Sequence record: OR296290.1 | Reading direction: 5' to 3' (one strand) | Length of the DNA: 64,000 bases | Source: Escherichia phage SDYTW1-F1-2-2_3 | Shown here: piece after piece, positions 11,243 to 37,382 of the stretch | Numbering within the stretch: the first letter of the stretch is position 1 | Layout: each line of letters starts with the position of its first letter | The notes under the pieces: model-generated | The model's input: the letters and a program-made list of their open reading frames with translations, nothing else | The model's database searches: none | Told to the model about the DNA's origin: nothing | Translations under genes and position numbers: made by a program

Positions 11243-11243
11243 A

Positions 11244-11417: not shown

Positions 11418-11424
11418 ATTAACC

Positions 11425-11924: not shown

Positions 11925-11934
11925 TTTTTATCTA

Positions 11935-12330: not shown

Positions 12331-12377
12331 CTCACATAGCCCTCTGATAAACACAAGGGCTATAGGTCGGTGTTACT
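12331..12377 (-). promoter_or_regulatory. conserved stem-loop element at gene 3' end (copy 2)
   Basis: Same arms ATAGCCC/GGGCTAT with different loop; overlaps stop codon of 12373-12591. Confidence 0.4.
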
Positions 12378-12591: not shown

Positions 12592-12601
12592 CTAATTGCC
12601 C

Positions 12602-13068: not shown

Positions 13069-13294
13069 CTTTAGCCTCTATGTTGGTTATGTGGAGATCA
13101 CTACGCACTTGGCAGACCTCATCCCGTTTAAAAGGCATGAGCTTTCCAGTTACTACATCAACACAGTTGACATAATTGTCTGCGTACAATGTGTCGGTTC
13201 TGATGTAAAGGGACTCTTTACGCTCAAACAGAACTCCCGGCTTCATATTATTTAAGCGAAGCATTGTACGATCGGATTTAATATTAACTTTCAC
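13058..13294 (-). CDS. small protein, GDVF-family-like (GTG start predicted)
   Basis: GTG at 13292-13294 with AGGAG SD 7 nt upstream; MKPGVLFERKESLYIRTD...CVDVVTG pattern; ATG at 13264 is an alternative start. Confidence 0.35.
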   Translation of the reverse strand: MKVNIKSDRTMLRLNNMKPGVLFERKESLYIRTDTLYADNYVNCVDVVTGKLMPFKRDEVCQVRSDLHITNIEAKDED

Positions 13295-13580
13295 TGTTAA
13301 TCTCCTGCTGCTTAGCAATAGCCACTCGCAAGTCTTCATTAGCACGGGCAAGGCGCAACACTTCATGATTGAGGTTCTGAAGACGTTTATTTCTGTCTTC
13401 AACTTGCATAATAAGATCGTTGAGTGTTGCTTTAACTTTCTCATTATACATCTCATCCACTCGAACTAAAGATCTATACATTCTCTCCCAGCTTGCTGCT
13501 TTGTTTCTGAGAACAATAAACCCTATAACGCTGATAGTTAAACAGAGTACAAAAAGGAATTTATATACTTCTAAAGTCAT
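13284..13580 (-). CDS. membrane-anchored coiled-coil protein
   Basis: N-terminal hydrophobic FLFVLCLTISVIGFIVL then charged helical region. Confidence 0.5.
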   Translation of the reverse strand: MTLEVYKFLFVLCLTISVIGFIVLRNKAASWERMYRSLVRVDEMYNEKVKATLNDLIMQVEDRNKRLQNLNHEVLRLARANEDLRVAIAKQQEINSES

Positions 13581-13779
13581 ATTATTTACCCTTTATCAGA
13601 GATTAAAAGTAATATTATTTAAGTAAGTTATATTTAGTAAACTTATTTTCTAAGAAATTTTCAAAGGGTCTATATACAGAGCATTATCCATAGTCCCAGA
13701 ATACTACCATCTTTTTCAATAAATTTACTAAGTGGTTGGTTTATAAAGGAATTTAGTTTGTCAAATCTGGCACTAGTGA

Positions 13780-14169
13780 TTATTCCCTAGAGCTATTATC
13801 GAACACTAAATCACCACAATACATAGGATTGGCATACCATTTTGGCACCCCTTCGCTCTTACTCTGAAAGTAAGTCCCACTATACAGCGGAACATAATTC
13901 TTCTTAAGGGCACGTTTAGCAAGTCGCTCGCTTTCTCCAATGGCTTGCTTAGTCATCGGATTTTTATCACGAATCAGCTTTACATAACGTTTATAAGGTT
14001 TCTCCTGTTTTAATAGTACCGGAATCCACTCAAACTGGTTCTTTTGTCTTATCACCTGTTCAGCGGTCAGTTTTCGTTGAGCCATTCTATTTATTACGGT
14101 ATCCGCAACTAAAGCCTTACATGCGGTTGGCTGGTTCCCTGCCTCATAATAAATAGTCAATGTCAACAT
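13780..14169 (-). CDS. cell-wall hydrolase, SleB-like (putative)
   Basis: 129 aa; YYEAGNQ...ALVADTVINR and C-terminal PKWYANP..YCGDLVF resemble SleB-type hydrolase motifs. Confidence 0.45.
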   Translation of the reverse strand: MLTLTIYYEAGNQPTACKALVADTVINRMAQRKLTAEQVIRQKNQFEWIPVLLKQEKPYKRYVKLIRDKNPMTKQAIGESERLAKRALKKNYVPLYSGTYFQSKSEGVPKWYANPMYCGDLVFDNSSRE

Positions 14170-14217
14170 TAGCTGGGCCGTTGTTATCAGAACTTGCTAC
14201 CTCCTGTTTTACGGGCA

Positions 14218-14244
14218 TAAAAAAGCCCCAGCCGTAGCCGGGGC
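14218..14244 (-). terminator. rho-independent terminator (minus strand)
   Basis: GCCCCAGCC-GTA-GCCGGGGC (one mismatch) followed on minus strand by TTTTTT. Confidence 0.5.
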
Positions 14245-14304
14245 AAACCTGAAAGCAACACATGACCGTTGCTATAAATACACTCGCAAATGTACTTACA
14301 GCAA

Positions 14305-14330
14305 CGCAAAAAGCCGCTCAAAGGCGGCTA
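14305..14330 (-). terminator. rho-independent terminator (minus strand)
   Basis: AGCCGC-TCAAAG-GCGGCT hairpin followed on minus strand by TTTTTG. Confidence 0.5.
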
Positions 14331-14374
14331 TATGGAAGCTTCAAATGGGGAGAGGGCACGACGCGACAGAAAGA

Positions 14375-14392
14375 GCGTCATAGTACTAAAAG
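14375..14392 (-). promoter_or_regulatory. conserved 18-nt intergenic motif GCGTCATAGTACTAAAAG (copy 2)
   Basis: Identical 18-mer downstream of stop of 14410-14853 and upstream of two terminator hairpins. Confidence 0.4.
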
Positions 14393-14409
14393 AGGAGGCT
14401 GTATTCCTA

Positions 14410-14853
14410 CTACTTAACCCTTGCCTCTTTGATGGGGTCAATGTATTTCTCAACGCCCCATTTATGTTTACTGTCTGCGTAGAAAACATCAGGCGCACAC
14501 TGGCTTGTCTTAGGAAAAGCCTGAGGGTCTTTCGTGCTACCTTTAAACTTCTGTTTACCACGGGTGCGACCATTACAGAAGATTTCTAACTTCTTCTCCT
14601 CTTCTGTTTTAGCTCCCCCGCTCTTTAACAAAGAACGTTTATGATCAGCTAACAATAACGCATCAGCACGATGAACGCGATGGCCTACACGCTTTGCCAC
14701 ACTAGAAGGAATATGGGATTCAGCTTCAGCCTTTGCAGCACGACGTTTTAAACTGCGCTTACTAACGTGATTAGTTGCCTTTGGCTTCTCTTTTTCTAGT
14801 TCAGAGATAGAGAAACAGCGACCGCCCTTCATGCTGATTTTAGATTTAGCCAT
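14410..14853 (-). CDS. basic protein, hypothetical
   Basis: 147 aa, Lys/Arg-rich; ATG with AAGGAA SD. Confidence 0.5.
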   Translation of the reverse strand: MAKSKISMKGGRCFSISELEKEKPKATNHVSKRSLKRRAAKAEAESHIPSSVAKRVGHRVHRADALLLADHKRSLLKSGGAKTEEEKKLEIFCNGRTRGKQKFKGSTKDPQAFPKTSQCAPDVFYADSKHKWGVEKYIDPIKEARVK

Positions 14854-14921
14854 TGTCTTATTCCTTTAGTGATAAGTTATATCGGGCAAGCCCATCAAGG
14901 TGACAGGCTTGAACAAATAAC

Positions 14922-15131
14922 TCAATCAAGTAAACCGAATGACTTCCAACTGCGTAGCAGGATCGTACCGTCATCCATAGCCACACATAATTTTAGCAGT
15001 GTTTTGTTGGTACTACTCACCGTCGTAATTCGCCCAGTTGTACATTTACCTTTGTTGCTATAAAGATATACAACACGACGGCCTAACAAACGAGATGGCG
15101 CTTTCTTAAACTCTGAAATATTAGTGATCAT
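14922..15131 (-). CDS. hypothetical protein
   Basis: 69-aa track ORF. Confidence 0.4.
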   Translation of the reverse strand: MITNISEFKKAPSRLLGRRVVYLYSNKGKCTTGRITTVSSTNKTLLKLCVAMDDGTILLRSWKSFGLLD

Positions 15132-15349
15132 TATCCGTAAAACTCCAAATGATTAGCACGTTTATCTTTAAAGTAGGAGCATTCAATACCCCTTGCTTTT
15201 ATCTCTTCTTTACGCTGGTTAGTGTGTACAGTATCCCAGTGATTATCATCACGTTGGCGCTGTAATATCTTACTACATTTGCGATGATTTCCCGTGCTGC
15301 GATGTTTCTCACAAATAGGACACTTGCCAAAGTTATTACTGAATATCAT
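15131..15349 (-). CDS. hypothetical protein with Cys/His cluster
   Basis: GKCPICEKHRSTGNHRKC suggests zinc binding. Confidence 0.4.
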   Translation of the reverse strand: MIFSNNFGKCPICEKHRSTGNHRKCSKILQRQRDDNHWDTVHTNQRKEEIKARGIECSYFKDKRANHLEFYG

Positions 15350-15573
15350 TTTCTCAATCCCAGCTTTCTTAAGATACGGCCTAACGTTGTTTCTTGCGTG
15401 ATAATATAGCTGATCGCTTCACGTTCCAACGTTTCAATTTTCATTGGTGACGGATACCATTCACCAGTAAGCACGCATTTACATTCAACGCCATACTTTT
15501 TAGATAGGCGGTAATGTTGACCGTTGACAAGATTCCGATAAATCGTGGTATGCGTAATTAACATGATCGTCAC
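15346..15573 (-). CDS. hypothetical protein
   Basis: 75-aa track ORF overlapping downstream start by 4 nt. Confidence 0.4.
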   Translation of the reverse strand: MTIMLITHTTIYRNLVNGQHYRLSKKYGVECKCVLTGEWYPSPMKIETLEREAISYIITQETTLGRILRKLGLRK

Positions 15574-24270: not shown

Positions 24271-26514
24271 ATGGCTAAGCAAAAATATAGTGAAGAGGTG
24301 TTGGACGAGTTACGTGTTGACCTTCAACGTCGTTTTAATTACGCTCAAGGCTACGTAGACACAGCTGTTAAGGGCTATGCTCGTGAAGCTTGGGAATATT
24401 TCTATGGTAACTTACCTGCACCAGTAACTGCTGGCAGCTCTAGTTGGGTAGATCGTACTGTTTGGGAATCTGTTAATGGTACACTGCAAGATATTATTAA
24501 CGTATTCTGTTCTGGTGATGAAGCAGTTACTTTCGTAGCTGATAACCAACAGGATTCTGATGCTGCTGATGTAGCAACTAAGTTAGTTAACCAAATTCTT
24601 CTGCGTGATAATCCGGGATATAACATTATCTCTTCTGCTGCACAAGAATGTCTGGTTACTCGTAACTCTTTTATCAAATATTATTGGGATGAGCACACTT
24701 CTACTCAAACTGAAGAAGCTGAAGGTGTACCACCGGAAGCATTGGCTGCATATGTTCAGGGATTAGAAGCTGGTGGACTTAAGAATCTGGAAATCTTCAC
24801 TGAAGAAAATGAAGATGGTACAGTAGATGTTAAAGTTACTTACGAACAAACTGTTAAACGTGTGAAAGTTGAATATGTTCCTTCAGAGCAAATCTTTGTT
24901 GATGAACATGCTACCTCTTTTGCAGATGCACAATACTTTTGTCATCGTGTACGTCGCTCTAAAGAAGATCTGGTTGCTATGGGCTTCCCTAAAGATGAGA
25001 TTGAAGCATTCAACGACTGGACAGACACGATGGACACCACTCAATCTACAGTTGCTTGGTCTCGTACTGACTGGCGTCAGGACATTGATGCTGACATTGG
25101 TACAGATACTGAAGATATCGCTACTATGGTTTGGGTTTATGAGCACTATATTCGTACTGGTGTTCTAGATAAGAATAAAGAGTCTAAACTCTATCAGGTT
25201 ATTCAAGCTGGTGAGCATATCCTTCACACTGAAGAAGTAACTCACATTCCATTTGTAACCTTCTGTCCGTATCCGATTCCGGGTTCCTTCTATGGTCAAT
25301 CAGTCTATGACATTACGAAAGATATTCAGGATTTACGTACCGCGCTAGTTCGTGGTTATATTGATAACGTCAACAATGCTAACTATGGTCGATACAAAGC
25401 TCTTGTTGGTGCATACGATCGTCGCTCTCTGCTTGATAACCGTCCCGGTGGAGTGGTTGAAATGGAACGTCAGGACGCTATTGACCTGTTCCCATACCAT
25501 AACCTACCTCAAGGTATTGACGGCCTCCTAGGTATGTCTGAGGAGCTTAAAGAGACACGTACCGGTGTAACTAAACTTGGTATGGGTATCAACCCTGATG
25601 TGTTTAAGAATGATAACGCTTATGCAACCGTAGGCTTGATGATGAATGCTGCACAGAACCGTCTCCGTATGGTATGTCGTAACATTGCTCACAACGGTAT
25701 GGTTGAATTGATGCGTGGTATTTACAGCCTTATCAGAGAAAACGGTGAAGTTCCTATTGAGGTACAAACCCCTCGTGGTATGGTTCAGGTTAATCCGAAA
25801 CAATTACCAGCTCGTCATAATCTTCAAGTTGTTGTAGCTATCTCTCCTAATGAGAAAGCAGAACGTGCACAGAAACTGATTAGCTTGAAACAGCTGATTG
25901 CAGCAGATGCACAATTAGCACCTCTCTTTGGTTTGGAGCAAGACCGCTACATGACTGCACAGATCTTTGAGTTGATGGGTATTAAGGACACTCATAAATA
26001 CTTACTGCCTCTGGAACAGTATCAGCCTCCTGAGCCGTCTCCGATGGAAATCCTCCAGCTCGAGATGACTAAAGCACAGGTTGAGAACGTACAGGCTTCT
26101 TCTCAGAAGATGATTGCTGATGCATTCGACCAGCGTGAACGTACTACATTCGAACAGCAGAAAGCTGCGGATGAATTAAGTCTGCGTCAGGAAGAGTTGC
26201 AGTTCAAGCAAGAAAATGCAGCAGATGCTATGACTCTGGAAAACCGTAAAGAAGATAACAATGCAACTCTGGAACAAGCTAAGCACAAGTTAGCTCTTAT
26301 GCAACAGCAGGTCCGTCAGTATGAGTCTGTACTGAAAGAATTGCAGATGGTTATGGAACATCAGGTTGACCAAGAGAAGATTGTTCAGCAAACTCGTGTT
26401 CAGGATAAAACTTTGGAACTCCAGAAGAAAGAAGCAAATGTAACTAAGAAAGAGCAACAAGCTTCTCTCAAAGATTCACGGATTCCAGGCAAACGTCTTG
26501 GAAGTAAAAAGTAA
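24271..26514 (+). CDS. portal protein
   Basis: 747 aa immediately after terminase; long C-terminal coiled-coil. Confidence 0.75.
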   Translation: MAKQKYSEEVLDELRVDLQRRFNYAQGYVDTAVKGYAREAWEYFYGNLPAPVTAGSSSWVDRTVWESVNGTLQDIINVFCSGDEAVTFVADNQQDSDAADVATKLVNQILLRDNPGYNIISSAAQECLVTRNSFIKYYWDEHTSTQTEEAEGVPPEALAAYVQGLEAGGLKNLEIFTEENEDGTVDVKVTYEQTVKRVKVEYVPSEQIFVDEHATSFADAQYFCHRVRRSKEDLVAMGFPKDEIEAFNDWTDTMDTTQSTVAWSRTDWRQDIDADIGTDTEDIATMVWVYEHYIRTGVLDKNKESKLYQVIQAGEHILHTEEVTHIPFVTFCPYPIPGSFYGQSVYDITKDIQDLRTALVRGYIDNVNNANYGRYKALVGAYDRRSLLDNRPGGVVEMERQDAIDLFPYHNLPQGIDGLLGMSEELKETRTGVTKLGMGINPDVFKNDNAYATVGLMMNAAQNRLRMVCRNIAHNGMVELMRGIYSLIRENGEVPIEVQTPRGMVQVNPKQLPARHNLQVVVAISPNEKAERAQKLISLKQLIAADAQLAPLFGLEQDRYMTAQIFELMGIKDTHKYLLPLEQYQPPEPSPMEILQLEMTKAQVENVQASSQKMIADAFDQRERTTFEQQKAADELSLRQEELQFKQENAADAMTLENRKEDNNATLEQAKHKLALMQQQVRQYESVLKELQMVMEHQVDQEKIVQQTRVQDKTLELQKKEANVTKKEQQASLKDSRIPGKRLGSKK

Positions 26515-26523
26515 GGACGTCGA

Positions 26524-26760
26524 ATGAACATTAGGCATCAATTCAATAAAGAGCACGCCGCCGCTTTGGCGGCTCTCAATCTTAACGGCAGTCTTGACGC
26601 AGCATTAGAGGCATTGAAAGAAAGACTCATGACAGAGATAGTTCAAACTGAACCTCATGAGAATAAGAAACGCGAAGATTGTTATCAAAAGTATAAAATG
26701 GTGGGTAGCTTAAAAGAGGTCATAAAAGCTGCTATCAATAGTGCAGGAGATGTTTCATAA
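26524..26760 (+). CDS. hypothetical protein
   Basis: 78-aa ORF between portal and scaffold. Confidence 0.4.
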   Translation: MNIRHQFNKEHAAALAALNLNGSLDAALEALKERLMTEIVQTEPHENKKREDCYQKYKMVGSLKEVIKAAINSAGDVS

Positions 26761-27845
26761 TGCCACAAGATAATTATATTGACCCGAACGATTTTAAATC
26801 TTTCCTCCAACTGGATGACCTGAAAGGTTCTTTTAAAGAAGAGCTTGGTCGATTAGAATCTGAACAAGAACCAGAAGTGGACATTGACGACGAGTTCCCG
26901 GAAGATACCGGTGACAACTTCGACTTTGATACCGACCTTCTCGGTGAAAGCGATGAGCTTAAGTTCGAAGATGAAGATGGTTGGGAAGATCATGATGAGG
27001 AAGGCGAAGTCGAAGAAGATGAGGATGACTCTGATGAAGGTGATGAAAACACTGAAGTAGAAGAGGAAGACTCAAGCGATGCAGGATATGAAGATGATTC
27101 CGCTGACGGTGATGGTGAGGTCTTTGATGTAGACTACGAAACCGTTATCACCCTTCCTGATGGACGTGAGATGACTATTGAAGAACTCTCCAATGGCTAT
27201 CTTACTGGTGCTGACATGACTGAACGAGAGTCAACTCTTCAGCGTCACATGGAAGCATTTGAGGAACGTGTAGTAGGTTTGAAGGATGTATTAGAATTAG
27301 CGTCTTTAGAAGCAGACCGAGTAATTGAAGATTACAATGGTTTTGATTGGGACAAGCTTGCAGTAGAAGATCCTCAAGCATATGTTGAAAACAAACGTTT
27401 CCTAGAGAAGTACACAGCTCGTCGTAACCAGCTTGAGCAGGCTCAGATGCGTGTTAAGCAGGAAGCAGCAGCTAAAGAACAGGAAGCTTTCCAAGCCAAG
27501 AGTGTTGAGTGCGTTAATATTCTGAAACGTGAGATTCCAAATTGGGATGAAAACTTATATCAAAACTTAATGCAATATGCAATTGACTTAGGTGCTACTG
27601 AAGAAGAAGTATTGAAGGAAAACCGTCCGTCTATTTTCCTAGCTCTCCATAAAGCATACCAATTTGATAAAGGTAAGCAGCAGGTGATGGCTAAGATTAA
27701 ACGTCCCGGTGCTCCACGCAAGGTTGTGAAGTCTGATGCTGCAAAGTCTCGTACTTCCAATAAGCCAGACAACGCTAAGGTTGCCAAGGCATTCGCAGAG
27801 GGTCGCGTTAGTCACGAAGACGCATTCAAATTCCTCGTAGATTAA
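26760..27845 (+). CDS. scaffolding protein (putative)
   Basis: 361 aa, extremely acidic N-half, helical C-half; immediately upstream of capsid gene. Confidence 0.55.
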   Translation: MPQDNYIDPNDFKSFLQLDDLKGSFKEELGRLESEQEPEVDIDDEFPEDTGDNFDFDTDLLGESDELKFEDEDGWEDHDEEGEVEEDEDDSDEGDENTEVEEEDSSDAGYEDDSADGDGEVFDVDYETVITLPDGREMTIEELSNGYLTGADMTERESTLQRHMEAFEERVVGLKDVLELASLEADRVIEDYNGFDWDKLAVEDPQAYVENKRFLEKYTARRNQLEQAQMRVKQEAAAKEQEAFQAKSVECVNILKREIPNWDENLYQNLMQYAIDLGATEEEVLKENRPSIFLALHKAYQFDKGKQQVMAKIKRPGAPRKVVKSDAAKSRTSNKPDNAKVAKAFAEGRVSHEDAFKFLVD

Positions 27846-27886
27846 TCGACAAATTAATTATTTAATAGTATAGGAGCTAACATAAC

Positions 27887-28948
27887 ATGGCTAATCCAAC
27901 TTTATTTGTATCGTATGACCAGAATGGTAAAAAACTTTCTTTTGCTAACTGGATTTCTGTTCTGTCCCCTCAGGATACTCCGTTCGTATCTATGACCGGT
28001 AAAGAGTCTATCAACCAGACTATCTTTAGCTGGCAGACCGATGCACTGGCAAGCGTTGATGGTAATAACGCACACGTCGAAGGCTCTCGTGCTGAAGACG
28101 GCGAAATGAAACCGACTGTTATCAAGTCTAACGTTACTCAGATTCTGCGTAAGGTTGTTCGTGTTTCTGACACTGCTAACACCACCGCTAACTACGGTCG
28201 TGGTCGTGAACTGATGTATCAGCTGGAGAAGAAAGGTAAAGAGATCAAGCGTGACCTCGAGAAAATCCTTCTGTCCGGTCAGGCTCGTACCGACGTTTTG
28301 GCTGACCAGTATCTGACTAACTCCGCAGCCGATCCGACTCAGATTGGTAAGAACGACACCCATGCAGCTCGTAAGACTGGTGCATTCCAGTTCCTGTGTG
28401 CTCACGGCGGTCTGACTGGTGGCGTTGTTGACAAAACCAAGAATGGTCCTGCTGACCCAGATACCGGTGCTGTAACTGTTAAAGTTGCACAGAACGCTTC
28501 TAACCCGGCTACTAACATCGGCTTCGATGAAGCAGATATCTTTGATATGACTCTGCAACTGTACACCGCTGGTTCTGAAGCAGATATCATCATGATTAAC
28601 CCGGCTCATGCTAAGATCTTCGCTGGCCTGCAAGAAAATACTCAGGGTTCACGTAAGCGTATCTTTGAGAACACCAAGCAGTTCATCTACGAAGTTAACA
28701 GCATCACTGACCCGCTGGGCCAGAGCTACAAAATCATCGTTAACCGTTGGATGCCTACTGATGCAGTTTACTTCTTCCGTAGCGCTGACTGGACCCAGAT
28801 GGTTCTGCGTGCTCCGAAACGTACTGAACTGGCAAAAGATGGTTCTTACGAGAAGTGGATGATTGAGATGGAAGTTGGTCTGCGTCACCGCAACCCGTAT
28901 GCTTCCGGTGTTCTGTTCACTGCTGCGGGAAAGGCAGTAGCGGCGTAA
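27887..28948 (+). CDS. major capsid protein
   Basis: 353 aa after scaffold; followed by strong terminator; carries frameshift site at its 3' end. Confidence 0.7.
   Translation: MANPTLFVSYDQNGKKLSFANWISVLSPQDTPFVSMTGKESINQTIFSWQTDALASVDGNNAHVEGSRAEDGEMKPTVIKSNVTQILRKVVRVSDTANTTANYGRGRELMYQLEKKGKEIKRDLEKILLSGQARTDVLADQYLTNSAADPTQIGKNDTHAARKTGAFQFLCAHGGLTGGVVDKTKNGPADPDTGAVTVKVAQNASNPATNIGFDEADIFDMTLQLYTAGSEADIIMINPAHAKIFAGLQENTQGSRKRIFENTKQFIYEVNSITDPLGQSYKIIVNRWMPTDAVYFFRSADWTQMVLRAPKRTELAKDGSYEKWMIEMEVGLRHRNPYASGVLFTAAGKAVAA
28927..28933 (+). other. programmed -1 ribosomal frameshift slippery heptamer G_GGA_AAG
   Basis: Canonical X_XXY_YYZ heptamer in zero frame four codons before capsid stop; -1 frame open from 28867 to 29475. 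Confidence 0.55.
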
Positions 28949-29475
28949 CAGTAGATACCATAACTGTTAGTCCTTCGTCGGTTGCAAGCCTTCCGACGGG
29001 GGCTACTCAGCAGTTTACAGCTACAGCACAAATGAGTGATAGCTCCACATCAACAACTGGATTTGTTTGGTCCGTTGAGGGTGGTGGGGCTATTTCTGTT
29101 TCTGGACTGTACACTGCACCGAGTGCGTCGCAAGAAACCCCGATTACAGTGAAAGCTACTAAAGGTGGTAAATCCGGTACATCTACGATCTCAGCTATTG
29201 CTGACCCTGAACCTACCCTTGTTAGCCGAGGTCCGATTTCAGGGAAGGTGGGTGGATCAACAACCGCATTCTCTACTATGTTTACAGCAACAAACTCTAC
29301 CGGAAGTGACTATACTTTTGAGGTAACTCCTCCGGAAGCGGGAACTGTTAGTGCAGCTGGTCTTTTGACTCTTGCTGATACTGCTATGGGTGCAGTCTCT
29401 GTTGCAGCTACACACGAGACTAAACCTCTTGTAACAGCCACTTGTGAATTCACAGGTGTAACACCTGCTGCTTAA
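28927..29475 (+). CDS. Ig-like (Big_2-type) C-terminal extension of major capsid protein made by -1 frameshift
   Basis: -1 frame reads GKGSSGVTVDTITVSPSSVASLPTGATQQFTATAQ..., a Big_2-like beta-strand pattern that starts upstream of the only in-frame ATG (29032), which lacks an SD. Confidence 0.55.
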   Translation, partial: GKGSSGVTVDTITVSPSSVASLPTGATQQFTATAQMSDSSTSTTGFVWSVEGGGAISVSGLYTAPSASQETPITVKATKGGKSGTSTISAIADPEPTLVSRGPISGKVGGSTTAFSTMFTATNSTGSDYTFEVTPPEAGTVSAAGLLTLADTAMGAVSVAATHETKPLVTATCEFTGVTPAA

Positions 29476-29482
29476 AATTAGA

Positions 29483-29507
29483 CCCTGCCTTCGGGCGGGG
29501 TTTTTTT
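29483..29507 (+). terminator. rho-independent terminator after capsid/Ig-extension gene
   Basis: CCCTGCC-TTCG-GGCGGGG stem with UUCG tetraloop followed by seven T. Confidence 0.7.
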
Positions 29508-29535
29508 CGTTTTAAGACCTATACAAGCTAGTGTG

Positions 29536-29544
29536 TAATGTATA
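29536..29544 (+). promoter_or_regulatory. TAATGTATA promoter-like motif (candidate phage-sigma-dependent late promoter)
   Basis: Exact TAATGTATA 33 nt upstream of ATG 29578, just after capsid terminator. Confidence 0.4.
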
Positions 29545-29577
29545 TTCTTTGTCTACATATAACAAGGAGGACAACCT

Positions 29578-30330
29578 ATGGCGATGCCTGAAGTGCAAAA
29601 CCCGACTAACACGTATGGCTGGCTTAAGAAAGCTGTTGCCTTGTGGGCCGATCGAGACGATGATGAATTTGTTAATCAAATTCCAAACTTTATTAACTTT
29701 GCAGAGAAAGAGATTTATCGTAACTTACGTATCCCTCCTCTGGAAAAAGAAGTGTATTTAGATATTAAAGATGGAGTAGCTTATATTCCTCCTGATTACT
29801 TAGAAGCTCAATGGATGATGAGAGCCAAAGACGGAACAATCTTCCAAGTAACATCTCCTGAGGAGATTAGCTATCGTAGACAGCATGGAACAATTAACCC
29901 ATCTCACTGGAACAACCAACCTGTTAACTTTGCTCGTTTCGGTAGTCGTTTCATTTTCTACCCTAGAATCGAAGCAGACACTCCTGTTTACCCTGATGAT
30001 GGAAGTCCTTTGATTCCAGCAGAAAACTCAGTAATTCTTAGCTATTATGCAGATCCACCGGAATTTCATGAAGATGAAGATACTAGTGCAATCCTCACTA
30101 TCGCACCAGAGCTTCTTCTGTATTTTACTCTACGTCATGCTTGCTTGTTTGTTCAAGATGATAACGGAGTTCAGAAATGGTCAGCATTAGGAAAAGCTAT
30201 CCTTGATGAAATGGTAGAGCAGAATAAGAAGCAAGAGTACTCAGGTTCACCTATCGCAATTCCGAATAACATGACTCGACTTCAGAGCAGCTTGCCTGAT
30301 ATTTATGGTATTCGTACTTCTCGTGTATAA
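29578..30330 (+). CDS. virion structural protein (possible head-tail adaptor)
   Basis: 250 aa; first gene after capsid terminator; AAGGAGG SD. Confidence 0.35.
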   Translation: MAMPEVQNPTNTYGWLKKAVALWADRDDDEFVNQIPNFINFAEKEIYRNLRIPPLEKEVYLDIKDGVAYIPPDYLEAQWMMRAKDGTIFQVTSPEEISYRRQHGTINPSHWNNQPVNFARFGSRFIFYPRIEADTPVYPDDGSPLIPAENSVILSYYADPPEFHEDEDTSAILTIAPELLLYFTLRHACLFVQDDNGVQKWSALGKAILDEMVEQNKKQEYSGSPIAIPNNMTRLQSSLPDIYGIRTSRV

Positions 30331-30339
30331 GGAGATAAT

Positions 30340-33300
30340 ATGATCGTTTATAATAACCAAGCACCTGATGCAGTGAATAACGTTGGGCAGTTTGGTGCTA
30401 CAGAAGGCTCTATCGGAGCTTACAAGCAAGCAGCAGAATATGCAGCTGATTCTAAGTATTGGGCATTACTGGCTGAGTCTAAGTTTGGCACAATCGATGA
30501 TCTGATTGCTGAAGTAGAACGTCTATATCAACAGGGTGTTCTGATGCAGCAAGACATTGAGGCTTTGAAGCAGGATTTTAGAGACCAAGATGCTCATTTA
30601 ATGCAACTTATCGCTCAGACTAACGCAGCTGTTTCTGATGCACAGAACGCTCTGGCTCTTATGGACCAGAAGCTGATTGAAGTTCAGGAACGACTGGATA
30701 TTCTGTTAGGTATGTCTGTTGACGTCACTACACTTCCTCCGGGAAATGAAGCTTCTGGGCATTTTGACCCTAACACTGGTGTTATCTCTTTGGGTATCCC
30801 TCAAGGTGTTCCGGGTAAAGATGGTACAGTAACAGATTTGAATAACGCACCAACCGGTGTTCCTGTTCTTGGTGATGTAGGTTTCTATGTTGATAAAGAT
30901 GACAACACTGTTCACAAAACGTCTTTAGAGAATATTGCAAACCTTATCCCATCTGTTCGTTCTATCTCTGTAAACGGCGGTCCTGCTGAGAGTGGTGAAG
31001 TTGCTCTAACTCTTGACAAAAGTACTGTTGGGTTAAGTAATGTAGAGAACGTGGCTTCTTATAGTAAAGAGGTTGTTGATAACAAAGTTGATGGTTTTAT
31101 TAAAACATACAGCTCTAAAGCTGAAGCGGATGCAGATGCTGTTAATCGTGAGGCTGGAGAAACTGTTTTAGTGTGGGAAAACACTCAGTATGTTTTCTAC
31201 AAAGTGGCTGCTGATAAGATTCTAGATTTAAGTAAAACAGAACCTCGGGTTATTACTGTCAACTCTCGTATTCCTGACTCTAGCGGTAACATTGATATTA
31301 CAATCCCTACAGGGAACCCATCCTTGTATCTAGGTGAATTATTGATGTTCCCTTATGACCCATCTCGCCCTATTTCTTATCCTGGGATTTTACCTGCTGA
31401 CGGTCGTTTGGTGTCCAAGGATTTGGCTAGCGATTTAGGTGCTTCTTTAGTTAGTGGTCAGCTTCCGGTTGTGTCTGAGACAGAATGGCAAGCAGGTGCT
31501 AAGCAGTATTATTCTTGGGGTAAACTGGCTGATGGGCTGACTGATGCAGACTCTACCAACTACATCAACATCCGTCTTCCTGATTGGACTGGTGGTGAAG
31601 CTATTAGATCTCCTAACCTAACTGGCGATGCTTCTTATGACGGTAAGCCATTAGATCAGAAACCTTACATCGTTACTGTTAACGGAATTGCTCCTAACGA
31701 TATCACAGGAAACGTCAACATAACAGCTGCAAATATAGGCGCTTTGGCTAAGTCTGGTGGTATCATGGACGGAAACTTAGTCCTTAACAAAGCTGTATCT
31801 TTACGCAGAATAAAGGATAATGACACTCAAGTTAACATGGTATCGAGAAGTGACTCTGATGCTTCTGTACTTGGTGACCACTTAGCTAAGACTGTAATAG
31901 CTTCTTCCGAGACACCAATCTTCTCTAAACCGGAAGGGGATTATAAGTTTTATACAGAGGATAACAAACCTACGAACGTTGATGTTGGTGCTGCTGGTAT
32001 TGATGTTAATGGTGTAAACTCTGACATAAAAACTTTCACTCAAAAGGTTACGTTCCAGCAACCTGTTACTGTGGCAGATGCTGTTGGAGACTATGATGCT
32101 GTTACCTTACGTCAACTAAGAAACCAAGGTGGTGGAGGTGGCGGTTCTACGATGAATGGTATCTCCAACTTCAATATTGGTGATTTCCGACTAGTAGATA
32201 GTCGAGCTTTTATCCAAGCAAATGATGTTGTGTCTGATGGTCAACTTTTGAACAGGGCCGAGTATCCTGAGCTTTGGGCGTATGCTCAGATGCTCACCCC
32301 TATAGAGGATTCTGAGTGGATTTCAACCCCTTCCAAGAGATCTCAATATTCACTAGGAGATGGCTCTACTACATTCCGTGTCCCTGATAGGAATGGTGTT
32401 CAGAGTGGCTCTGTTAAGGCTTTATATGGAAGAGGTGACGGTGGAGGTTCTTACGGAGGTATTTATGATAGTGGGATTCCTGACATAACTGGTCAGTTCA
32501 GAGCTTATGGATACAATGCAGGTGAACCTACAGGTGCATTTGGTTCCTATAATAGTGGTAGCGCTGAGTTTGAATTAAAATCTACATCTGCTAATTTTAC
32601 TAGGTACAACACATTCACCATAAGTGCCGGAAGGGTTAACTCTGTTTATGGAAGAGCAGACGAGGTCAGGCCTAGATCTTTCGTCGGTGTATGGGTGATT
32701 CGTGCTAAAGGGGCTTTCATCGCTGCCAATACAACATGGTCAGTAATTAATAGTGACACCTCTCGTCCTTCTGACGGAACCACTGTGACTGGTGGTAATG
32801 TAATATCTGAATATAAAGTAGGGGCAGAATCTGAAGGTTCAGCCGAGTTCCGAATGGTTGGAACGATTGGAAGCTCTTATTCTGCTAGAATTGGTGTTTA
32901 CAACAAAACATCAAGTAAAGGAACTACTTTTGATTTTACTGAGGCCGGTAATATAGAGACTCCCAAAGGTCGTGTTTTGGTGAAAGGGGATTACGGTGTT
33001 GGTGCTCAGGGAAGTGTTGTATTACCTGAAACTAACTATAACCAGCTCATAACAGATTCAGATGGTGCCTCATCGTGGGCAGCTGCTAATGGAGGGGGTA
33101 TACAAACTTCCTATGCCGTAAATAGAATCTGTCAATTTTGGGTAAGTCTGAGTGGTTCGGCTTATATCAGATCTAATACACTGAACAACAACCCAAAAGA
33201 ACTCAAATCCAATCTTCCGTGGACAACTCTCCAGAATGCTGGAACCTCTGACGCAAATGTCAAGGATATTGGAGATGATTTAGATTTAAATGTCGCTCTA

Positions 33301-33540
33301 AGTAATATTAAATCTCTTGAATTTAAAAACTTTACTTACAAGAACGATGAGAAGAAATCACCACGTAGAGGGGTAATTGCGCAACAAGCAGAACAGGTGG
33401 ACCCTCAGTATGTCCATAGTGCAGAAAAAAGTGGAGTCATGACTCTTGACACTAACCCGCTTTTATTAGATGCCCTTGCTGCTATCAAGCTTTTGTCTGC
33501 TAAAGTAGAAGAGTTGGAAAAGCAGTTAGCTGCTAAATGA
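30340..33540 (+). CDS. tail fibre/tail spike protein with C-terminal intramolecular-chaperone-like domain
   Basis: 1066 aa; Gly-rich linker, collar-like module (LLNRAEYPELWAYAQ...FRVPDRNG) and C-terminal ...GVIAQQAEQVDPQYV... segment typical of auto-cleaving fibre chaperone domains. Confidence 0.65.
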   Translation: MIVYNNQAPDAVNNVGQFGATEGSIGAYKQAAEYAADSKYWALLAESKFGTIDDLIAEVERLYQQGVLMQQDIEALKQDFRDQDAHLMQLIAQTNAAVSDAQNALALMDQKLIEVQERLDILLGMSVDVTTLPPGNEASGHFDPNTGVISLGIPQGVPGKDGTVTDLNNAPTGVPVLGDVGFYVDKDDNTVHKTSLENIANLIPSVRSISVNGGPAESGEVALTLDKSTVGLSNVENVASYSKEVVDNKVDGFIKTYSSKAEADADAVNREAGETVLVWENTQYVFYKVAADKILDLSKTEPRVITVNSRIPDSSGNIDITIPTGNPSLYLGELLMFPYDPSRPISYPGILPADGRLVSKDLASDLGASLVSGQLPVVSETEWQAGAKQYYSWGKLADGLTDADSTNYINIRLPDWTGGEAIRSPNLTGDASYDGKPLDQKPYIVTVNGIAPNDITGNVNITAANIGALAKSGGIMDGNLVLNKAVSLRRIKDNDTQVNMVSRSDSDASVLGDHLAKTVIASSETPIFSKPEGDYKFYTEDNKPTNVDVGAAGIDVNGVNSDIKTFTQKVTFQQPVTVADAVGDYDAVTLRQLRNQGGGGGGSTMNGISNFNIGDFRLVDSRAFIQANDVVSDGQLLNRAEYPELWAYAQMLTPIEDSEWISTPSKRSQYSLGDGSTTFRVPDRNGVQSGSVKALYGRGDGGGSYGGIYDSGIPDITGQFRAYGYNAGEPTGAFGSYNSGSAEFELKSTSANFTRYNTFTISAGRVNSVYGRADEVRPRSFVGVWVIRAKGAFIAANTTWSVINSDTSRPSDGTTVTGGNVISEYKVGAESEGSAEFRMVGTIGSSYSARIGVYNKTSSKGTTFDFTEAGNIETPKGRVLVKGDYGVGAQGSVVLPETNYNQLITDSDGASSWAAANGGGIQTSYAVNRICQFWVSLSGSAYIRSNTLNNNPKELKSNLPWTTLQNAGTSDANVKDIGDDLDLNVALSNIKSLEFKNFTYKNDEKKSPRRGVIAQQAEQVDPQYVHSAEKSGVMTLDTNPLLLDALAAIKLLSAKVEELEKQLAAK

Positions 33541-33548
33541 TTAACAAC

Positions 33549-33568
33549 GCTCCCTTCGGGGAGCTTTT
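33549..33568 (+). terminator. terminator/attenuator hairpin between tail fibre genes
   Basis: GCTCCC-TTCG-GGGAGC plus TTTT; sits just before SD of next gene. Confidence 0.45.
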
Positions 33569-33579
33569 AGGAGGATTTA

Positions 33580-35733
33580 ATGTCTAGAGAATTAATGCCC
33601 AAATCCGGTATAATGATGCCTCATGTAGTAATCAACAGAGATGCTGCGGTAGTTGGTGTCTCTACTGTAGATGGAGTTGCTGGTGCAGTTGATCTTACTG
33701 GTAAGTACCTACAGAAAACAGATGCGGCAGATACCTATCAAACAAAAACTGAAGGTGCTTCTAAGACTTATGTTTTAGATTCTATTCAACCTATCATGGA
33801 AGGTGCTTTGTTTAAAGCTGACCCTTTCGTAGATAACAATATCCCTTTCCGTTCTGCTGGTGCTAATGGTGTAGAATCCATAGATATGATTAAGGTCACT
33901 CCAGAGAACTCTATTAAACTTGGAAGTTACGAGTCTTCTGTTCAAGGAGTAGAGATTCACTCTGCTGGTCGTGTTGTGGTTGTTGATAAGAACGACTCTG
34001 GTGTGGAAACCAAGTATCCTGTTTACTCCAAACGCTTCCGTCCTGAGATTGAAGATTTACCATTTGCAGCCATAGGCTCTTATGTTAAAGACTCCAAAGG
34101 CCGCACGATCGGTGTGAACCGTACAGGTATTAACTCTGATATTAAACAGTTTACTCAGAAAGTCACCTTCCAGCAGCCTGTAACAATCGCAGATGGTGTG
34201 GGTGATTATGATGCTGTAACAATGAGGCAGTTACGTAACAGTGGTGGTGGTTCTGGTGGTCCTACAATGAGCGGTATCTCTAACTTCGGTATTGGTGATT
34301 TCCACTTACGAGATAGTCGCGCTTTTATTCCAGCTTTTGAGGTTACATCAGATGGGCAGCTTCTTAATCGTGCTGACTATCCTGATTTATGGGCTTATGC
34401 TCAATTATTGACTCCTATTCCTGACTCTCAATGGCTAGGAGATGTTAGGGAACGTGGTAAATATTCAGTGGGTGATGGTTCTACTACTTTCCGAGTTCCT
34501 GACCGAAATGGTGTCCAAGCTGACTCTATTAAAGCATTATTTGCTAGAGGTGATGCTGGTGTTTCATCTATAAATGGAACAATACAACAAGCTCACGTAC
34601 CTAATATTTCTGCCAAAATGGACCTCCATGCAGGTGGTTCAGCCAACATAATAAGTGGGGCCATTGGAGCTTTTGTAGGCGGTGGTGGCTCAACAACGAC
34701 TTATAGAACCCCTGGTACGTTAACAGTAAACTCCGGTGCAAGCTCTTTTGGCACAATGACTTTAGATGCTAGTAAATCTAGCTCTGTGTATGGTTCTATT
34801 CCTTCCAACACGGATGAAGTCTTACCTCGTAACTTTACAGGTGTCTGGACTATTCGTGCCCATGGTGGGTTTGTAGCTGCTAATACCTCTTGGGCTGTTA
34901 TTAATAGTGATGCGTCTGCCACACCCGGCGCTTATGTATCTGGCGGGCAGGTTATATCTAAATATCAGGTTAACGGTGTAGACCGCGCCATTGCCCGCAT
35001 GAGCGCTGATTGGCGGGTTGGGGATGCCTACCAATCAACAATCCATTTTTATAATAACTCAACCAATAGCGGCGGAACTGCGATCACTGATTCTCACTAC
35101 TATTTGAGTGGACCATCTGGACAGATTCTAACTGATTCAAAAACAGGGATAGGTGATGCGGGGGGCATGTTTGCGACACCGAATGCAAACGACTTTACTA
35201 CTAACGGTATTTATGCAGGTGCTGGGGCTAATGGGGTTAACTGGGGGGACGCGTATTCGGCACTGCTGCACATGTCTCGCTATAATGCCTCCTCGCAGCG
35301 CGCTCAGCTTCAGATCAGTCCCACAGGTTTGTTGAAGGTTCGTGGTGCCTCCCCTACAACTTGGTCCGACTGGTTCACAATGCAGGCGCAGGGAACTTCT
35401 GGACGTGACTTTAAGCGCGACATAACCCCAGCAGACCCGAAAGAAGCATTTGACCGGATTGCTTCACAAGATCTTGTCACGTTTATCTATAAGGATGACG
35501 AACAGGAGCGCGTTCGTTTCGGTATTATCGCGGAGGATGCGGAGAAGATTGCGCCGCAATACATCAAGCACGGCGAGGAGACGGTAGAGGTTGATGGTGA
35601 GGTGATCACTCGTGATCATCCGAGAGTCGACGTTAACCCTATTGTCATGGATTTAATTGGCGCTGTTCACTATCTCCGTGATGAAGTTGATCAGCTAAAA
35701 GCAGAACTGGCTGAGTTGAAAGATAGTAAATAA
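33580..35733 (+). CDS. second tail fibre protein with C-terminal intramolecular-chaperone-like domain
   Basis: 717 aa; shares ~150-aa collar-like module and C-terminal chaperone-like domain with 30340-33540. Confidence 0.65.
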   Translation: MSRELMPKSGIMMPHVVINRDAAVVGVSTVDGVAGAVDLTGKYLQKTDAADTYQTKTEGASKTYVLDSIQPIMEGALFKADPFVDNNIPFRSAGANGVESIDMIKVTPENSIKLGSYESSVQGVEIHSAGRVVVVDKNDSGVETKYPVYSKRFRPEIEDLPFAAIGSYVKDSKGRTIGVNRTGINSDIKQFTQKVTFQQPVTIADGVGDYDAVTMRQLRNSGGGSGGPTMSGISNFGIGDFHLRDSRAFIPAFEVTSDGQLLNRADYPDLWAYAQLLTPIPDSQWLGDVRERGKYSVGDGSTTFRVPDRNGVQADSIKALFARGDAGVSSINGTIQQAHVPNISAKMDLHAGGSANIISGAIGAFVGGGGSTTTYRTPGTLTVNSGASSFGTMTLDASKSSSVYGSIPSNTDEVLPRNFTGVWTIRAHGGFVAANTSWAVINSDASATPGAYVSGGQVISKYQVNGVDRAIARMSADWRVGDAYQSTIHFYNNSTNSGGTAITDSHYYLSGPSGQILTDSKTGIGDAGGMFATPNANDFTTNGIYAGAGANGVNWGDAYSALLHMSRYNASSQRAQLQISPTGLLKVRGASPTTWSDWFTMQAQGTSGRDFKRDITPADPKEAFDRIASQDLVTFIYKDDEQERVRFGIIAEDAEKIAPQYIKHGEETVEVDGEVITRDHPRVDVNPIVMDLIGAVHYLRDEVDQLKAELAELKDSK

Positions 35734-35826: not shown

Positions 35827-36045
35827 ATGAAAATGATGAAACAAGCTGTTTACGGTTTAGTCTGTTTAGGTGCAGGGGTTGTGGTTTCTACAGCAGTTCC
35901 TGTTAACGCAGTACATCCATTAGTCACAGCACCAGCTCCTGTTGAGAAACTTAGTTCTCAATGCAAGCAGCGAACTATTCAAAATAACTTGGTTGTTATT
36001 TGTCCTGATGCTGAATCTAACGCCCTGAGAAAGATACTACCTTAA
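35827..36045 (+). CDS. small secreted/membrane protein upstream of endolysin (possible holin-like role)
   Basis: 72 aa; N-terminal MKMMKQAVYGLVCLGAGVVVSTAVPVNA looks like a signal peptide or single TM. Confidence 0.35.
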   Translation: MKMMKQAVYGLVCLGAGVVVSTAVPVNAVHPLVTAPAPVEKLSSQCKQRTIQNNLVVICPDAESNALRKILP

Positions 36046-36074
36046 TTTAAAGGGATCACAAAAGGAGGTTAGAA

Positions 36075-36566
36075 ATGGATAACGTCGCATTGCCACCTGT
36101 ACAGTTAAACTTAAGCCCAGCTGGAATGGAATTCATCATGAAGCATGAGGGTATGAGAACCAAGGCTTATAAAGATTCCGCAGGTATCTGGACAATATGT
36201 GTAGGGGCTACGCGCGATATGAATGGTTATCCGGTTAGGCAAGGATTAACATATTCTATAGAGGATTGTCTAGCTCTGCTAGATAGAGACACACAAGACT
36301 CTGTTCGTGCTACTCAGAAAAACATAAAGGTTCCTTTGCTCGTTCATGAGTTCGATGCACTCACCTCTTTCAACTTCAACGTTGGTAGTGGGGCACTGAG
36401 CACATCTAAGTTAAGGAAGGTTATCAATGGAGATGTCAAAGGTGATGTATACTCAGAGTTTCTTCGTTGGGATAAAATTACGGTGAAGGGAGAGAAGCAG
36501 AGGAGTCAGGGTCTTCATAACAGAAGGGTTGCAGAAGCTGATCTTTATACCGAAGGTAAATATTAA
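36075..36566 (+). CDS. endolysin, lysozyme-type (phage lysozyme family)
   Basis: 163 aa; HEGMRTKAYKDSAGIWTICVGAT matches the catalytic Glu/Asp-Thr region of T4/lambda-type lysozymes. Confidence 0.65.
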   Translation: MDNVALPPVQLNLSPAGMEFIMKHEGMRTKAYKDSAGIWTICVGATRDMNGYPVRQGLTYSIEDCLALLDRDTQDSVRATQKNIKVPLLVHEFDALTSFNFNVGSGALSTSKLRKVINGDVKGDVYSEFLRWDKITVKGEKQRSQGLHNRRVAEADLYTEGKY

Positions 36567-36578: not shown

Positions 36579-37382
36579 TTGGCTATCGAAAATAATGCGG
36601 TAGTAGTTACCGACTTGAATCCACTCTATCCTCGTGATAGGGATTATATCTACGAAGGGGCGGCTCAAATCCGCCTCATCAAACAAACACTACAAAACAC
36701 ATTCCCCAATATCACTGAACCAGTTAATGTTGATTCTGATACTTTTAAGATTATATCAGAGAAGCTCAAGTTTACTGGTGATTCAATGGATGTTGGTGGG
36801 CTTATGATTAAGAACGCTACTCCGGGAACTGGTGATAAAGATGTTGTCACTAAGGGTCAGATGGAAGCATTCATGAAGAATTGGATGGAGAATAAACTTT
36901 ATCGTATTGGTTCTTATTACATCACTGAGGAAGATATTAATCCGGGTGATTCTATCTCTCTTGGGTTTGGTTCTTGGGCTAAGGTTACTGGTGTTATCAT
37001 GGGTACTGGTGTAGTTAACCCTGATGGTTCGGTTCCTAATGCTCAGCGTGTTGAATTCCAAGCAGGTGGTACAGGTGGTCGTGTATTTAATACCATTCGC
37101 ACTGAGAACGTACCTCTTATGACGATTGACGGTTCTAGTTTTAAAGTTTCAAGTAACACCCACTCACATAACATGGTCTTTGGTCGTGGAGATGCAAGTG
37201 GACACAACAGCTCTCCAAACTGGTATAACCCAGGAACTGGATACAGTAAGAGAACTGAAGCAGACACTCACACTCACACCATTTCTGGTTCTGTTAGTTT
37301 TGGTCGTGATGACATCTCACGTCAACCTATTAACACTTTGCCACCATTCAGAGCGGCTCACATTTGGAGACGTATTAGCTAA
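36579..37382 (+). CDS. tail fibre-like/receptor-binding protein (putative); TTG start
   Basis: 267 aa; first in-frame start after upstream stop is TTG with GGAGGTG SD; Gly/Thr/Ser-rich beta-type sequence. Confidence 0.4.
   Translation: MAIENNAVVVTDLNPLYPRDRDYIYEGAAQIRLIKQTLQNTFPNITEPVNVDSDTFKIISEKLKFTGDSMDVGGLMIKNATPGTGDKDVVTKGQMEAFMKNWMENKLYRIGSYYITEEDINPGDSISLGFGSWAKVTGVIMGTGVVNPDGSVPNAQRVEFQAGGTGGRVFNTIRTENVPLMTIDGSSFKVSSNTHSHNMVFGRGDASGHNSSPNWYNPGTGYSKRTEADTHTHTISGSVSFGRDDISRQPINTLPPFRAAHIWRRIS

Follow-up and report, generated by a model that had tools for sequence, protein, structure and literature searches.

The stretch of DNA that was analysed (hereafter, the window) comprises 64,000 nucleotides (nt) of Escherichia phage SDYTW1-F1-2-2_3 (sequence record OR296290.1). 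It carries two adjacent genes, open reading frame (ORF) A and ORF B, whose products are related to the proteins of long tail fibres (Table 1). The amino acids (aa) 1-474 of ORF A match the protein gp12 of phage SU10, which is deposited in the PDB as 'long tail fiber proximal protein' (7z47_D; E 7e-241), and the identity to SU10 gp12 is 78% over the 477 residues of ORF A aa 1-477. Residues 209-1064 of ORF A can be aligned end to end with residues 196-1070 of LtfA from phage DT57C (8hqz_d; E 3e-151). Moreover, ORF A is 87% identical to gp14 of phage LAMP over its full length, and phrog_10305 covers aa 1-991. ORF B shares 53% identity with SU10 gp13 over 99% of its length and 42% with DT57C LtfB over the full length, and phrog_6921 covers its aa 1-716. 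The best relative of the whole ORF B protein in public metagenomes is 78% identical, and for its distal cassette (aa 323-606) no relative above about 40% identity was found in the phage collection. The context of the genes agrees with these assignments: ORF A has an SU10 gp12-like N-terminus and shaft and directly follows the adaptor gene, and ORF B, homologous to distal fibre proteins over its full length, is located between the proximal-fibre gene and the holin gene. In the phage collection, only LAMP, EK010, E20-1 and PAS59 were found to have the complete architecture of ORF A; in the other kuraviruses, the matches to ORF A are divided between two genes.

The view of a first-pass annotation that both genes encode receptor-binding proteins of tail fibres is thus borne out by the homology to SU10 gp12/gp13 and DT57C LtfA/LtfB. 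However, it had also assumed two separate fibres. ORF A and ORF B most likely belong to a single long tail fibre as its two subunits and correspond to SU10 gp12 and gp13 or phiEco32 gp14 and gp15, with ORF B docking on ORF A. In our judgement, it is probable that they form a LAMP-like Kuravirus long tail fibre that is branched like LtfA/LtfB of DT57C and has two receptor-binding arms, self-cleaving chaperones and swappable cassettes. This reading joins the homology, the domain order, the catalytic dyad and the breakpoints determined in the present analysis with the trimer state, the docking of ORF B on ORF A, the autocleavage and the glycan binding that are taken over from published homologues. 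The genes of PAS59 are annotated as 'tailspike', but scans with Pfam and PHROGs found no depolymerase or beta-helix family, and an enzymatic tailspike was rejected.

The two proteins share more than a common function. A comparison of both genes by blastn yielded two blocks, of which the first extends over 32011-32450 in gene A and 34126-34565 in gene B (70.3% identity over 444 nt with 2 gap openings, E 1.3e-55) and the second over 32686-32756 and 34840-34910 (71.8% over 71 nt, E 1e-5). Within the window, blastn uncovered no further copy of the module in the first block. The coordinates 32010-32460 and 34130-34560 and the nucleotide identity of 70-75%, which had been estimated for this module in the first-pass annotation, were accurate. 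The two copies of the module (A 556-697, B 181-322) have about 76% of their amino acids in common. By contrast, the claim that the distal regions differ completely did not hold, as the similarity detected by BLASTP continues to the C-termini with the same order of domains (A 523-1064 versus B 144-711, 41% identity over 584 aa, E 6e-124). Part of it is a further block of high conservation (A 768-812, B 402-450) with an identity of about 65-70% at the amino acid level (0.57-0.70 in a codon-aware profile), and the tips, up to the chaperones, still show a weak collinear identity of 20-30%. As judged from these alignments, ORF A and ORF B are paralogous across their entire C-terminal parts and not only in the module of about 150 aa. 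The same applies to DT57C, in which LtfA and LtfB are 49% identical over 689 aa and have a paralogous stretch that begins with the module and ends with the chaperone. SU10 gp12 and gp13 share no similarity.

Two direct copies, which are located about 2.1 kb apart and have a nucleotide identity of 70%, could go back to a recent duplication or to ongoing gene conversion between ORF A and ORF B of one genome. The situation in DT57C, where the copies are 92% identical and laboratory deletions between them occur, would speak for such a scenario. However, we consider it extremely improbable and rejected it because of the third-codon identity, which is only about 0.37-0.67 in the module, and because of the identities among the module copies. 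The module of ORF A is 89% identical to that of LAMP gp14, and the module of ORF B is 83-86% identical to those of LAMP gp15 and SU10 gp13, the B-type modules (ORF B, LAMP gp15, SU10 gp13) being 81-91% identical to each other, whereas the A-type and B-type modules are 76% identical within as well as between genomes. Thus, each of the two module types constitutes an orthologous group of its own, and the copies belong to old, separate lineages. By the same comparisons, the module is old and maintained by purifying selection. In DT57C (ltfA at 12189-15419, ltfB at 9784-12150, minus strand), the identity of 92% between the copies, as compared to 76% in the window and 77% in LAMP, is compatible with a more recent homogenisation and with the reported laboratory ltfA-ltfB fusion deletions.

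Both proteins end with a domain of the Peptidase_S74 family (PF13884), which was detected with 40.3 bits in ORF A (aa 970-1025) and 38.0 bits in ORF B (aa 608-661) at a Pfam cut-off of 22. The catalytic Ser-x4-Lys dyad is intact in both proteins (S970/K975 in ORF A, AGTS|DANVK; S607/K612 in ORF B, QGTS|GRDFK), and the first position of the profile falls at S970 in ORF A. The proposal that both C-termini are chaperone-like is therefore well founded. An alignment of 42 sequences, consisting of ORF B and its orthologues, was used for the conservation profile and the invariant residues, and S607 and K612 are present in every one of these sequences without exception. The AlphaFold2 (AF2) monomer model of the full ORF B protein, calculated with this alignment, reached a mean pLDDT (the predicted value of the local distance difference test) of 50.9, and it is usable only for the chaperone and, in part, for the collar and the tip. 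Within the model, residues 610-717 have pLDDT values of 77-92 and include a terminal helix (aa 685-716; fold checked in ORF B only). A comparison of the ORF B model with the PDB using Foldseek matched chaperone structures only, for instance the MyRF ICA domain (7dc3; E 3.5e-6, TM-target 0.63-0.67) and the chaperone of the endosialidase endoNF (3gw6; E 3e-4). Moreover, a profile search of the PDB with the ORF B alignment recovered 7dc3, 8jov, 6f45 and 3gud, which include the S16 gp37 and GA-1 chaperones, as well as DT57C LtfA; T4 gp12 and T5 pb1 were not found in this search.

The C-terminal domains of ORF A and ORF B thus resemble the chaperones of endosialidases, T5 pb1, GA-1 gp12 and MyRF ICA in the S74 profile and in the location of the dyad at the start of the domain. 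Like in these chaperones, the chaperone of ORF B is located at the C-terminus and has a long terminal helix, and its fold corresponds to that of 7dc3 and 3gw6. However, the sequence identity to the solved S74 chaperones is low (13-26%), and the cleavage of ORF A and ORF B is a prediction. For EP335 gp13, the orthologue of ORF B, electrospray ionisation mass spectrometry revealed cleavage after Ser621, the equivalent of S607 (Witte et al., PMC8217332). By analogy, ORF A and ORF B would cleave themselves after S970 and S607, respectively, which would yield products of 103.3 and 10.6 kDa for ORF A and of 64.0 and 12.6 kDa for ORF B.

The nature of the shared module is less clear. The Pfam family Collar (PF07484) matches ORF A with 17.6 bits (aa 669-685) and ORF B with 17.9 bits (aa 294-311), in both cases only at profile positions 38-54 and below the cut-off of 24. 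Membership of the 'collar-like' module in this Pfam family, as one might expect from the name that it had been given, was thus not confirmed. For DT57C LtfA, the Collar score is 25.0 bits, but the match lies in the first of its collar-like copies (aa 385-400). A comparison of the 42-sequence ORF B alignment with T4 gp12 by hhalign was not significant. A collar or T4-gp12-like nature of the module, to which the sub-threshold Pfam matches and published analyses of orthologues point, could not be shown.

The order of the segments downstream of the module is compatible with that of T-shaped fibres with two receptor-binding domains (RBDs). In these fibres, which include Bas87 Gp10, Bas32 Gp24 and Bas99 Gp114, a Gp12-like RBD1 is combined with a T5-like RBD2 and an intramolecular chaperone (Humolli et al., 10.1101/2024.09.12.612763). 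ORF B is an orthologue of the Bas87 Gp10-type fibres and likewise has two variable segments split by a conserved block, followed by the chaperone. Within the block, aa 421-440 are 92% conserved among the orthologues, while the flanking residues 321-420 and 441-600 are variable. The published scheme fits the variable segments of ORF B, as far as they can be recognised in a sequence profile. In the BASEL phages, one such protein accompanies each plain proximal fibre, whereas in the window phage both fibre proteins appear to have this layout.

Table 1. Fibre genes, their predicted domains, similarity to phage LAMP and neighbouring genes in the window (positions refer to the whole 64,000-nt stretch; RBD, receptor-binding domain)
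Feature	Residues	Position	Strand	Remarks
ORF A, proximal long-tail-fibre protein	1066 aa	30340-33540	+	SU10 gp12 / phiEco32 gp14 / LAMP gp14 type
ORF A, N-terminal tail-adaptor-binding segment	1-90	30340-30609	+	Assigned by homology; near-identical to the first 90 residues of SU10 gp12
ORF A, conserved block	213-477	30976-31770	+	Conserved in all Gordonclarkvirinae proximal fibres and DT57C LtfA; proposed dock for ORF B
ORF A, degenerate extra collar-like domain	~340-430	31357-31629	+	ADGRLVS...EWQAGAKQYYSWGKLADG...IRLPDWTGGEA; distantly related to the shared module
ORF A, shared module	556-697	32005-32450	+	Shaft end (FTQKVTFQQPVT..DYDAVTLRQLRN), poly-Gly linker, first half of collar-like domain (SDGQLLNRAEYPELWAYAQ..GDGSTTFRVPDRNGVQ)
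ORF A, variable insert	698-770	32431-32649	+	'RBD1' head of T4-gp12-like domain (literature naming)
ORF A, second conserved block	771-812	32650-32775	+	DEVRPRSFVGVWVIRAKGAFIAANTTWSVINSD; closes the collar-like domain
ORF A, distal tip	813-970	32776-33249	+	'RBD2', T5-pb1-like according to the literature; ends at predicted cleavage serine S970
ORF A, Peptidase_S74 intramolecular chaperone	971-1066	33250-33540	+	Predicted release: 96 aa, 10.6 kDa
Intergenic hairpin		33549-33564	+	GCTCCC-TTCG-GGGAGC, UUCG-type loop; followed by TTTT and the ribosome-binding site AGGAGG of ORF B
ORF B, distal (branch) long-tail-fibre protein	717 aa	33580-35733	+	SU10 gp13 / phiEco32 gp15 / EP335 gp13 / DT57C LtfB type
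ORF B, conserved N-terminal peptide	1-45	33580-33714	+	Proposed dock on ORF A
ORF B, conserved shaft	46-180
ORF B, shared module	181-322	34120-34565	+
ORF B, variable insert	323-405	34546-34794	+	'RBD1' head; orthologue identity drops to 0.24-0.42
ORF B, conserved closing block	406-450	34795-34929	+	DEVLPRNFTGVWTIRAHGGFVAANTSWAVINSD
ORF B, hypervariable distal tip	451-607	34930-35400	+	'RBD2'; ends at S607; orthologue identity 0.13-0.28
ORF B, Peptidase_S74 intramolecular chaperone	608-717	35401-35733	+	Predicted release: 110 aa, 12.6 kDa
LAMP nucleotide similarity		25340-32444		90%
LAMP nucleotide similarity		32445-32662		None
LAMP nucleotide similarity		32663-34553		83%
LAMP nucleotide similarity		34554-35475		None except closing block
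LAMP nucleotide similarity		35476 onwards		83%
Major capsid gene		27887-28948		SU10-type; upstream of ORF A
Adaptor gene		29578-30330		SU10-type; PF24175; 10 nt upstream of ORF A
Holin gene	72 aa	begins 35827		phrog_11161; next gene 3' of ORF B
Endolysin gene	163 aa			Holin and endolysin together span 35827-36566
Short tail fibre gene		36579-37382		Gp10_C-type; equivalent of SU10 gp16
Nozzle-like protein gene				Big_2-bearing; downstream of the fibre genes

The nucleotide similarity to other phages breaks at the edges of these segments. The breaks in the alignments with LAMP and SU10 coincide with the 3' edges of the module, at 32444 in ORF A and at 34553-34560 in ORF B; the similarity to SU10 stops at 31608 and again at 34560. 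The sole LAMP-like island in the variable region of ORF B is 34825-34922. Moreover, among about 30 listed phages, the nucleotide match stops at the query positions 4061-4221, which correspond to the 3' end of the ORF B module. The fact that the similarity ends exactly there supports the idea that receptor-binding cassettes are exchanged with other phages. In the case of ORF A, the phages PAS59, EK010 and E20-1 match only from about aa 755 onwards, in the insert and tip region, and the distal tip is 78-80% identical to those of PAS59, EK010 and E20-1 and 71% identical to that of LAMP. The nearest relative of ORF B (78%) is encoded on the ENA contig ERZ17809368 NODE_29 (6001-8151), where it adjoins a proximal fibre of the SU10 type (3180-5960; 926 aa) that has a Phage_tail_C_2 domain and no S74 chaperone. 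Thus, in related phages, a given A type is not tied to a given B type, and the two assort independently. Of the modular exchange by recombination that had been suggested for the two genes, one part holds true: according to the breakpoints, the part downstream of the module is exchangeable between phages. However, there is no sign of a recent exchange between ORF A and ORF B in this genome.

It has also been shown that a deletion in DT571/2, which joins LtfA 1-663 to LtfB 288-767 inside the homologous module, results in a functional fibre with the specificity of LtfB (PMC4728585). This chimera therefore provides direct evidence that the specificity is determined by all that follows the module. 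For the phages discussed here, the variable receptor-binding cassettes would be swapped across homology arms, with the conserved module on one side and the conserved chaperone and intergenic sequence on the other. LAMP, SU10 and the ENA contig all have the same intergenic hairpin between the two genes (Table 1), with no change in the subsequent three T's or in the core of the ribosome-binding site, although the preceding C-termini of the A proteins are unrelated. Judging from this comparison, the hairpin is the putative 3' homology arm for swapping the C-terminal cassette of ORF A; it could also be an element for RNA stability or attenuation. Metagenomic relatives of the N-terminus of ORF A carry various C-terminal domains, namely PF25670, PF21722, PF13385 (lectin-like), PF03372 and PF13884, which suggests that the C-terminus of the proximal fibre may be a swappable functional end in itself. 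The underlying search with ORF A aa 1-477 was incomplete, as it yielded no more than 22 proteins, among which LAMP itself was missing, and it is unusable for estimating the frequency of S74 domains.

How ORF A and ORF B are connected can be approached from two conserved regions. The residues 1-45 of ORF B are identical to those of DT57C LtfB at 34 of 45 positions (76%), and the sequences diverge straight after this peptide, whose mean identity is 92% across 41 orthologues. In ORF A, residues 205-480 share 117 of 260 positions (45%) with DT57C LtfA 190-475, and SU10 gp12 239-516 is 43% identical to LtfA 223-479. To our knowledge, the tails of T5-like phages and kuraviruses have no other attachment parts in common. 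Both similarities correspond to those described previously, when it was noticed that LtfA 223-471 resembles phiEco32 gp14 and that the first 45 aa of LtfB resemble gp15, and a contact region for LtfB was proposed (Golomidova et al. 2016, PMC4728585). The window phage thus possesses an LtfA 223-471-like region in ORF A and an LtfB-like N-terminus of 45 aa in ORF B and, like LtfA and LtfB, both proteins have a receptor-binding region and an S74 domain of their own. Genetic studies with DT57C revealed that LtfB requires LtfA and that both proteins bind different O-antigens (Golomidova et al. 2016, PMC4728585). For phiEco32, a branched arrangement of gp14 and gp15 seen by cryo-electron microscopy (cryo-EM) has been cited as personal communication (PMC4728585). 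The N-terminus of ORF B is about 90% conserved irrespective of whether the A protein has a C-terminus of the SU10 type or of the LAMP type. The dock must therefore be located in the conserved part of ORF A, which favours a branch over an end-to-end joint. By analogy with DT57C, ORF B would be attached to the side of ORF A and two receptors would be used.

In a serial fibre with an elbow, ORF B would be attached end to end to the C-terminus of ORF A, only ORF B would meet the receptor and the C-terminal half of ORF A would be a joint. This arrangement, which also weighs against a branch, has been reported for SU10, in which gp12 and gp13 are the proximal and distal parts of one unbranched fibre of 700 Å with one elbow and segments of 300 Å and 400 Å (PMC9509320). 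Moreover, EP335 gp12, an SU10-type orthologue of ORF A, bound no cells when fused to green fluorescent protein (PMC8217332), so that a receptor role of the ORF A arm is only putative in this group of phages. Further points also speak against the branched fibre: its geometry is transferred to the window phage from homologues, and O-antigens are assigned as the receptor class by analogy only. In addition, the confidence of the AF2 monomer models is low except in the chaperone (pLDDT 51 and 56), and the models did not recover the RBD1 fold, the RBD2 fold or the T shape. However, we consider a serial fibre unlikely for several reasons. The C-terminus of the A protein is wholly different in SU10 (PF25670, no S74) and in the window phage (S74), whereas the N-terminus of ORF B is highly conserved, and a joint at the C-terminus of ORF A would need co-variation with ORF B. 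Furthermore, the tip of ORF A would be formed with the help of a chaperone that is then cut off, and such a removal leaves a free receptor-binding end in T5 pb1, DT57C LtfA and EP335 gp13. Finally, the B-type N-terminal peptide and the A-type mid-region co-occur in DT57C, whose arms bind different O-antigens according to genetics.

The complete receptor-binding ends and chaperones in both genes would also be compatible with the assumption of the first-pass annotation, according to which ORF A and ORF B attach to the virion separately as two independent fibres. However, the adaptor of SU10 shows only the N-termini of gp12, and the other set of fibres is formed by the short tail fibre gp16, which is also encoded in the window. 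Moreover, the N-terminus of ORF B is unlike any virion-binding domain, and its sole homologue across families, LtfB, depends on LtfA. Two independent fibres are thus very unlikely, even more so than the serial fibre.

The branched fibre would be assembled as follows. Trimers of ORF A would be anchored to the tail adaptor via their N-termini, as in SU10, where the N-terminus of gp12 is located on the adaptor gp11 and only 90 residues of gp12 could be built in the cryo-EM map (PMC9509320). Trimers of ORF B would then join ORF A, most likely by docking of the first approximately 45 residues of ORF B on the conserved region of ORF A (aa ~213-477). In its C-terminal half, ORF A is a paralogue of ORF B in the window phage, as well as in a minority of related phages, and in both proteins the shaft-linker-collar module (about 145 aa) is followed by the variable insert, the closing block, the hypervariable tip and the S74 chaperone. 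The chaperone would assist the folding of the trimer and subsequently cut itself off after S970 or S607. Each fibre would thereby offer two independent, non-enzymatic receptor-binding arms that set or widen the host range. The receptors of both arms are probably O-antigens or other surface glycans, by analogy with the homologues. The orthologue of ORF B in EP335, gp13, binds cells of the serogroups O157 and O26 (Witte et al., PMC8217332), and the long fibre of SU10 contacts the cell first and primes the short fibres and the nozzle (PMC9509320).

A more detailed version of the branched fibre, which we regard as tentative and rather doubtful, is that in LAMP-type kuraviruses each of the six long fibres is a branch of two complete 'T-shaped' units and has up to four distinct glycan-binding sites, as ORF A and ORF B would each contribute an RBD1 and an RBD2. 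The degenerate collar-like domain of ORF A (aa ~340-430) is a candidate socket for ORF B and would have been re-used for this purpose. It would hold the N-terminal peptide of 45 residues of ORF B, echoing T4 gp10, which holds gp12. ORF B 249-373 matches DT57C LtfA 340-461, the equivalent of this domain, with E-values of 2.7e-5 and 1.3e-8.

Several features distinguish the fibre from those of known systems. Like ORF A and ORF B, LtfA and LtfB of DT57C and DT571/2, which form the L-shaped tail fibre of T5-like siphoviruses, are encoded by adjacent genes, the first protein is the virion anchor and the paralogy covers the shared module, the S74 chaperone and everything in between (PMC4728585; Ayala et al. 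2023, PMC10713586; PDB 8hqz). However, the anchor of DT57C is a T5 pb1-like N-terminus that is held by the LtfC collar, whereas that of the window phage is an SU10 gp12-like N-terminus on a podovirus adaptor. Moreover, DT57C has tandem repeats of 19 aa after the docking region, unlike ORF A, and its receptor-binding segments are only about 30-57% identical to those of ORF A and ORF B. The proximal proteins of the SU10 type end in Phage_tail_C_2 (PF25670), have no chaperone and lack similarity to the distal protein, while ORF A has a complete second receptor-binding unit of the B type. ORF A and ORF B are thus the known two-protein long fibre of the Gordonclarkvirinae in the less common LAMP/DT57C-like form, with new receptor-binding alleles. 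The current understanding of these fibres is unchanged because close homologues have already been described with a branched fibre of two proteins, with the chaperone and with modular exchange.

Kuraviruses are often isolated for therapy and biocontrol. In terms of their host range, two receptor-binding arms per fibre, each with a conserved scaffold and swappable cassettes, would be relevant, and the breakpoints can be read from the sequence. This could be useful for engineering or predicting the host range in the kuravirus group.

At the DNA level, Escherichia phage LAMP (Kuravirus, Gordonclarkvirinae), whose host is E. coli 4s, comes closest, ahead of PAS59, E20-1, EK010 and other kuraviruses, and LAMP and the window share 90% nucleotide identity across the structural genes (25340-32444). 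Judged by these matches, the window belongs to a LAMP-like podophage of the C3 morphotype (Kuravirus, Gordonclarkvirinae) and covers most of its genome. The order of the genes for the adaptor, ORF A, ORF B, holin, endolysin, short fibre and nozzle is the same as in the Gordonclarkvirinae phages SU10, phiEco32 and EP335. The holin and endolysin genes are located inside the structural module, between the genes for the long and the short fibres, an order that is also found in LAMP and SU10. A strong terminator-like hairpin with a stem of 10 bp, 6 GC pairs and a T-run is located at 29480-29503, directly after an Ig-like ORF (29032-29475), and its position is that of an annotated terminator in SU10. 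A new transcription unit with the adaptor and fibre genes probably starts near this site. Furthermore, the window contains one tRNA-Arg gene with the anticodon TCT on the minus strand (10993-11069). The sign of the GC skew flips from negative to positive at about 20 kb and from positive to negative at about 52 kb, which is compatible with gene blocks of opposite transcription direction.

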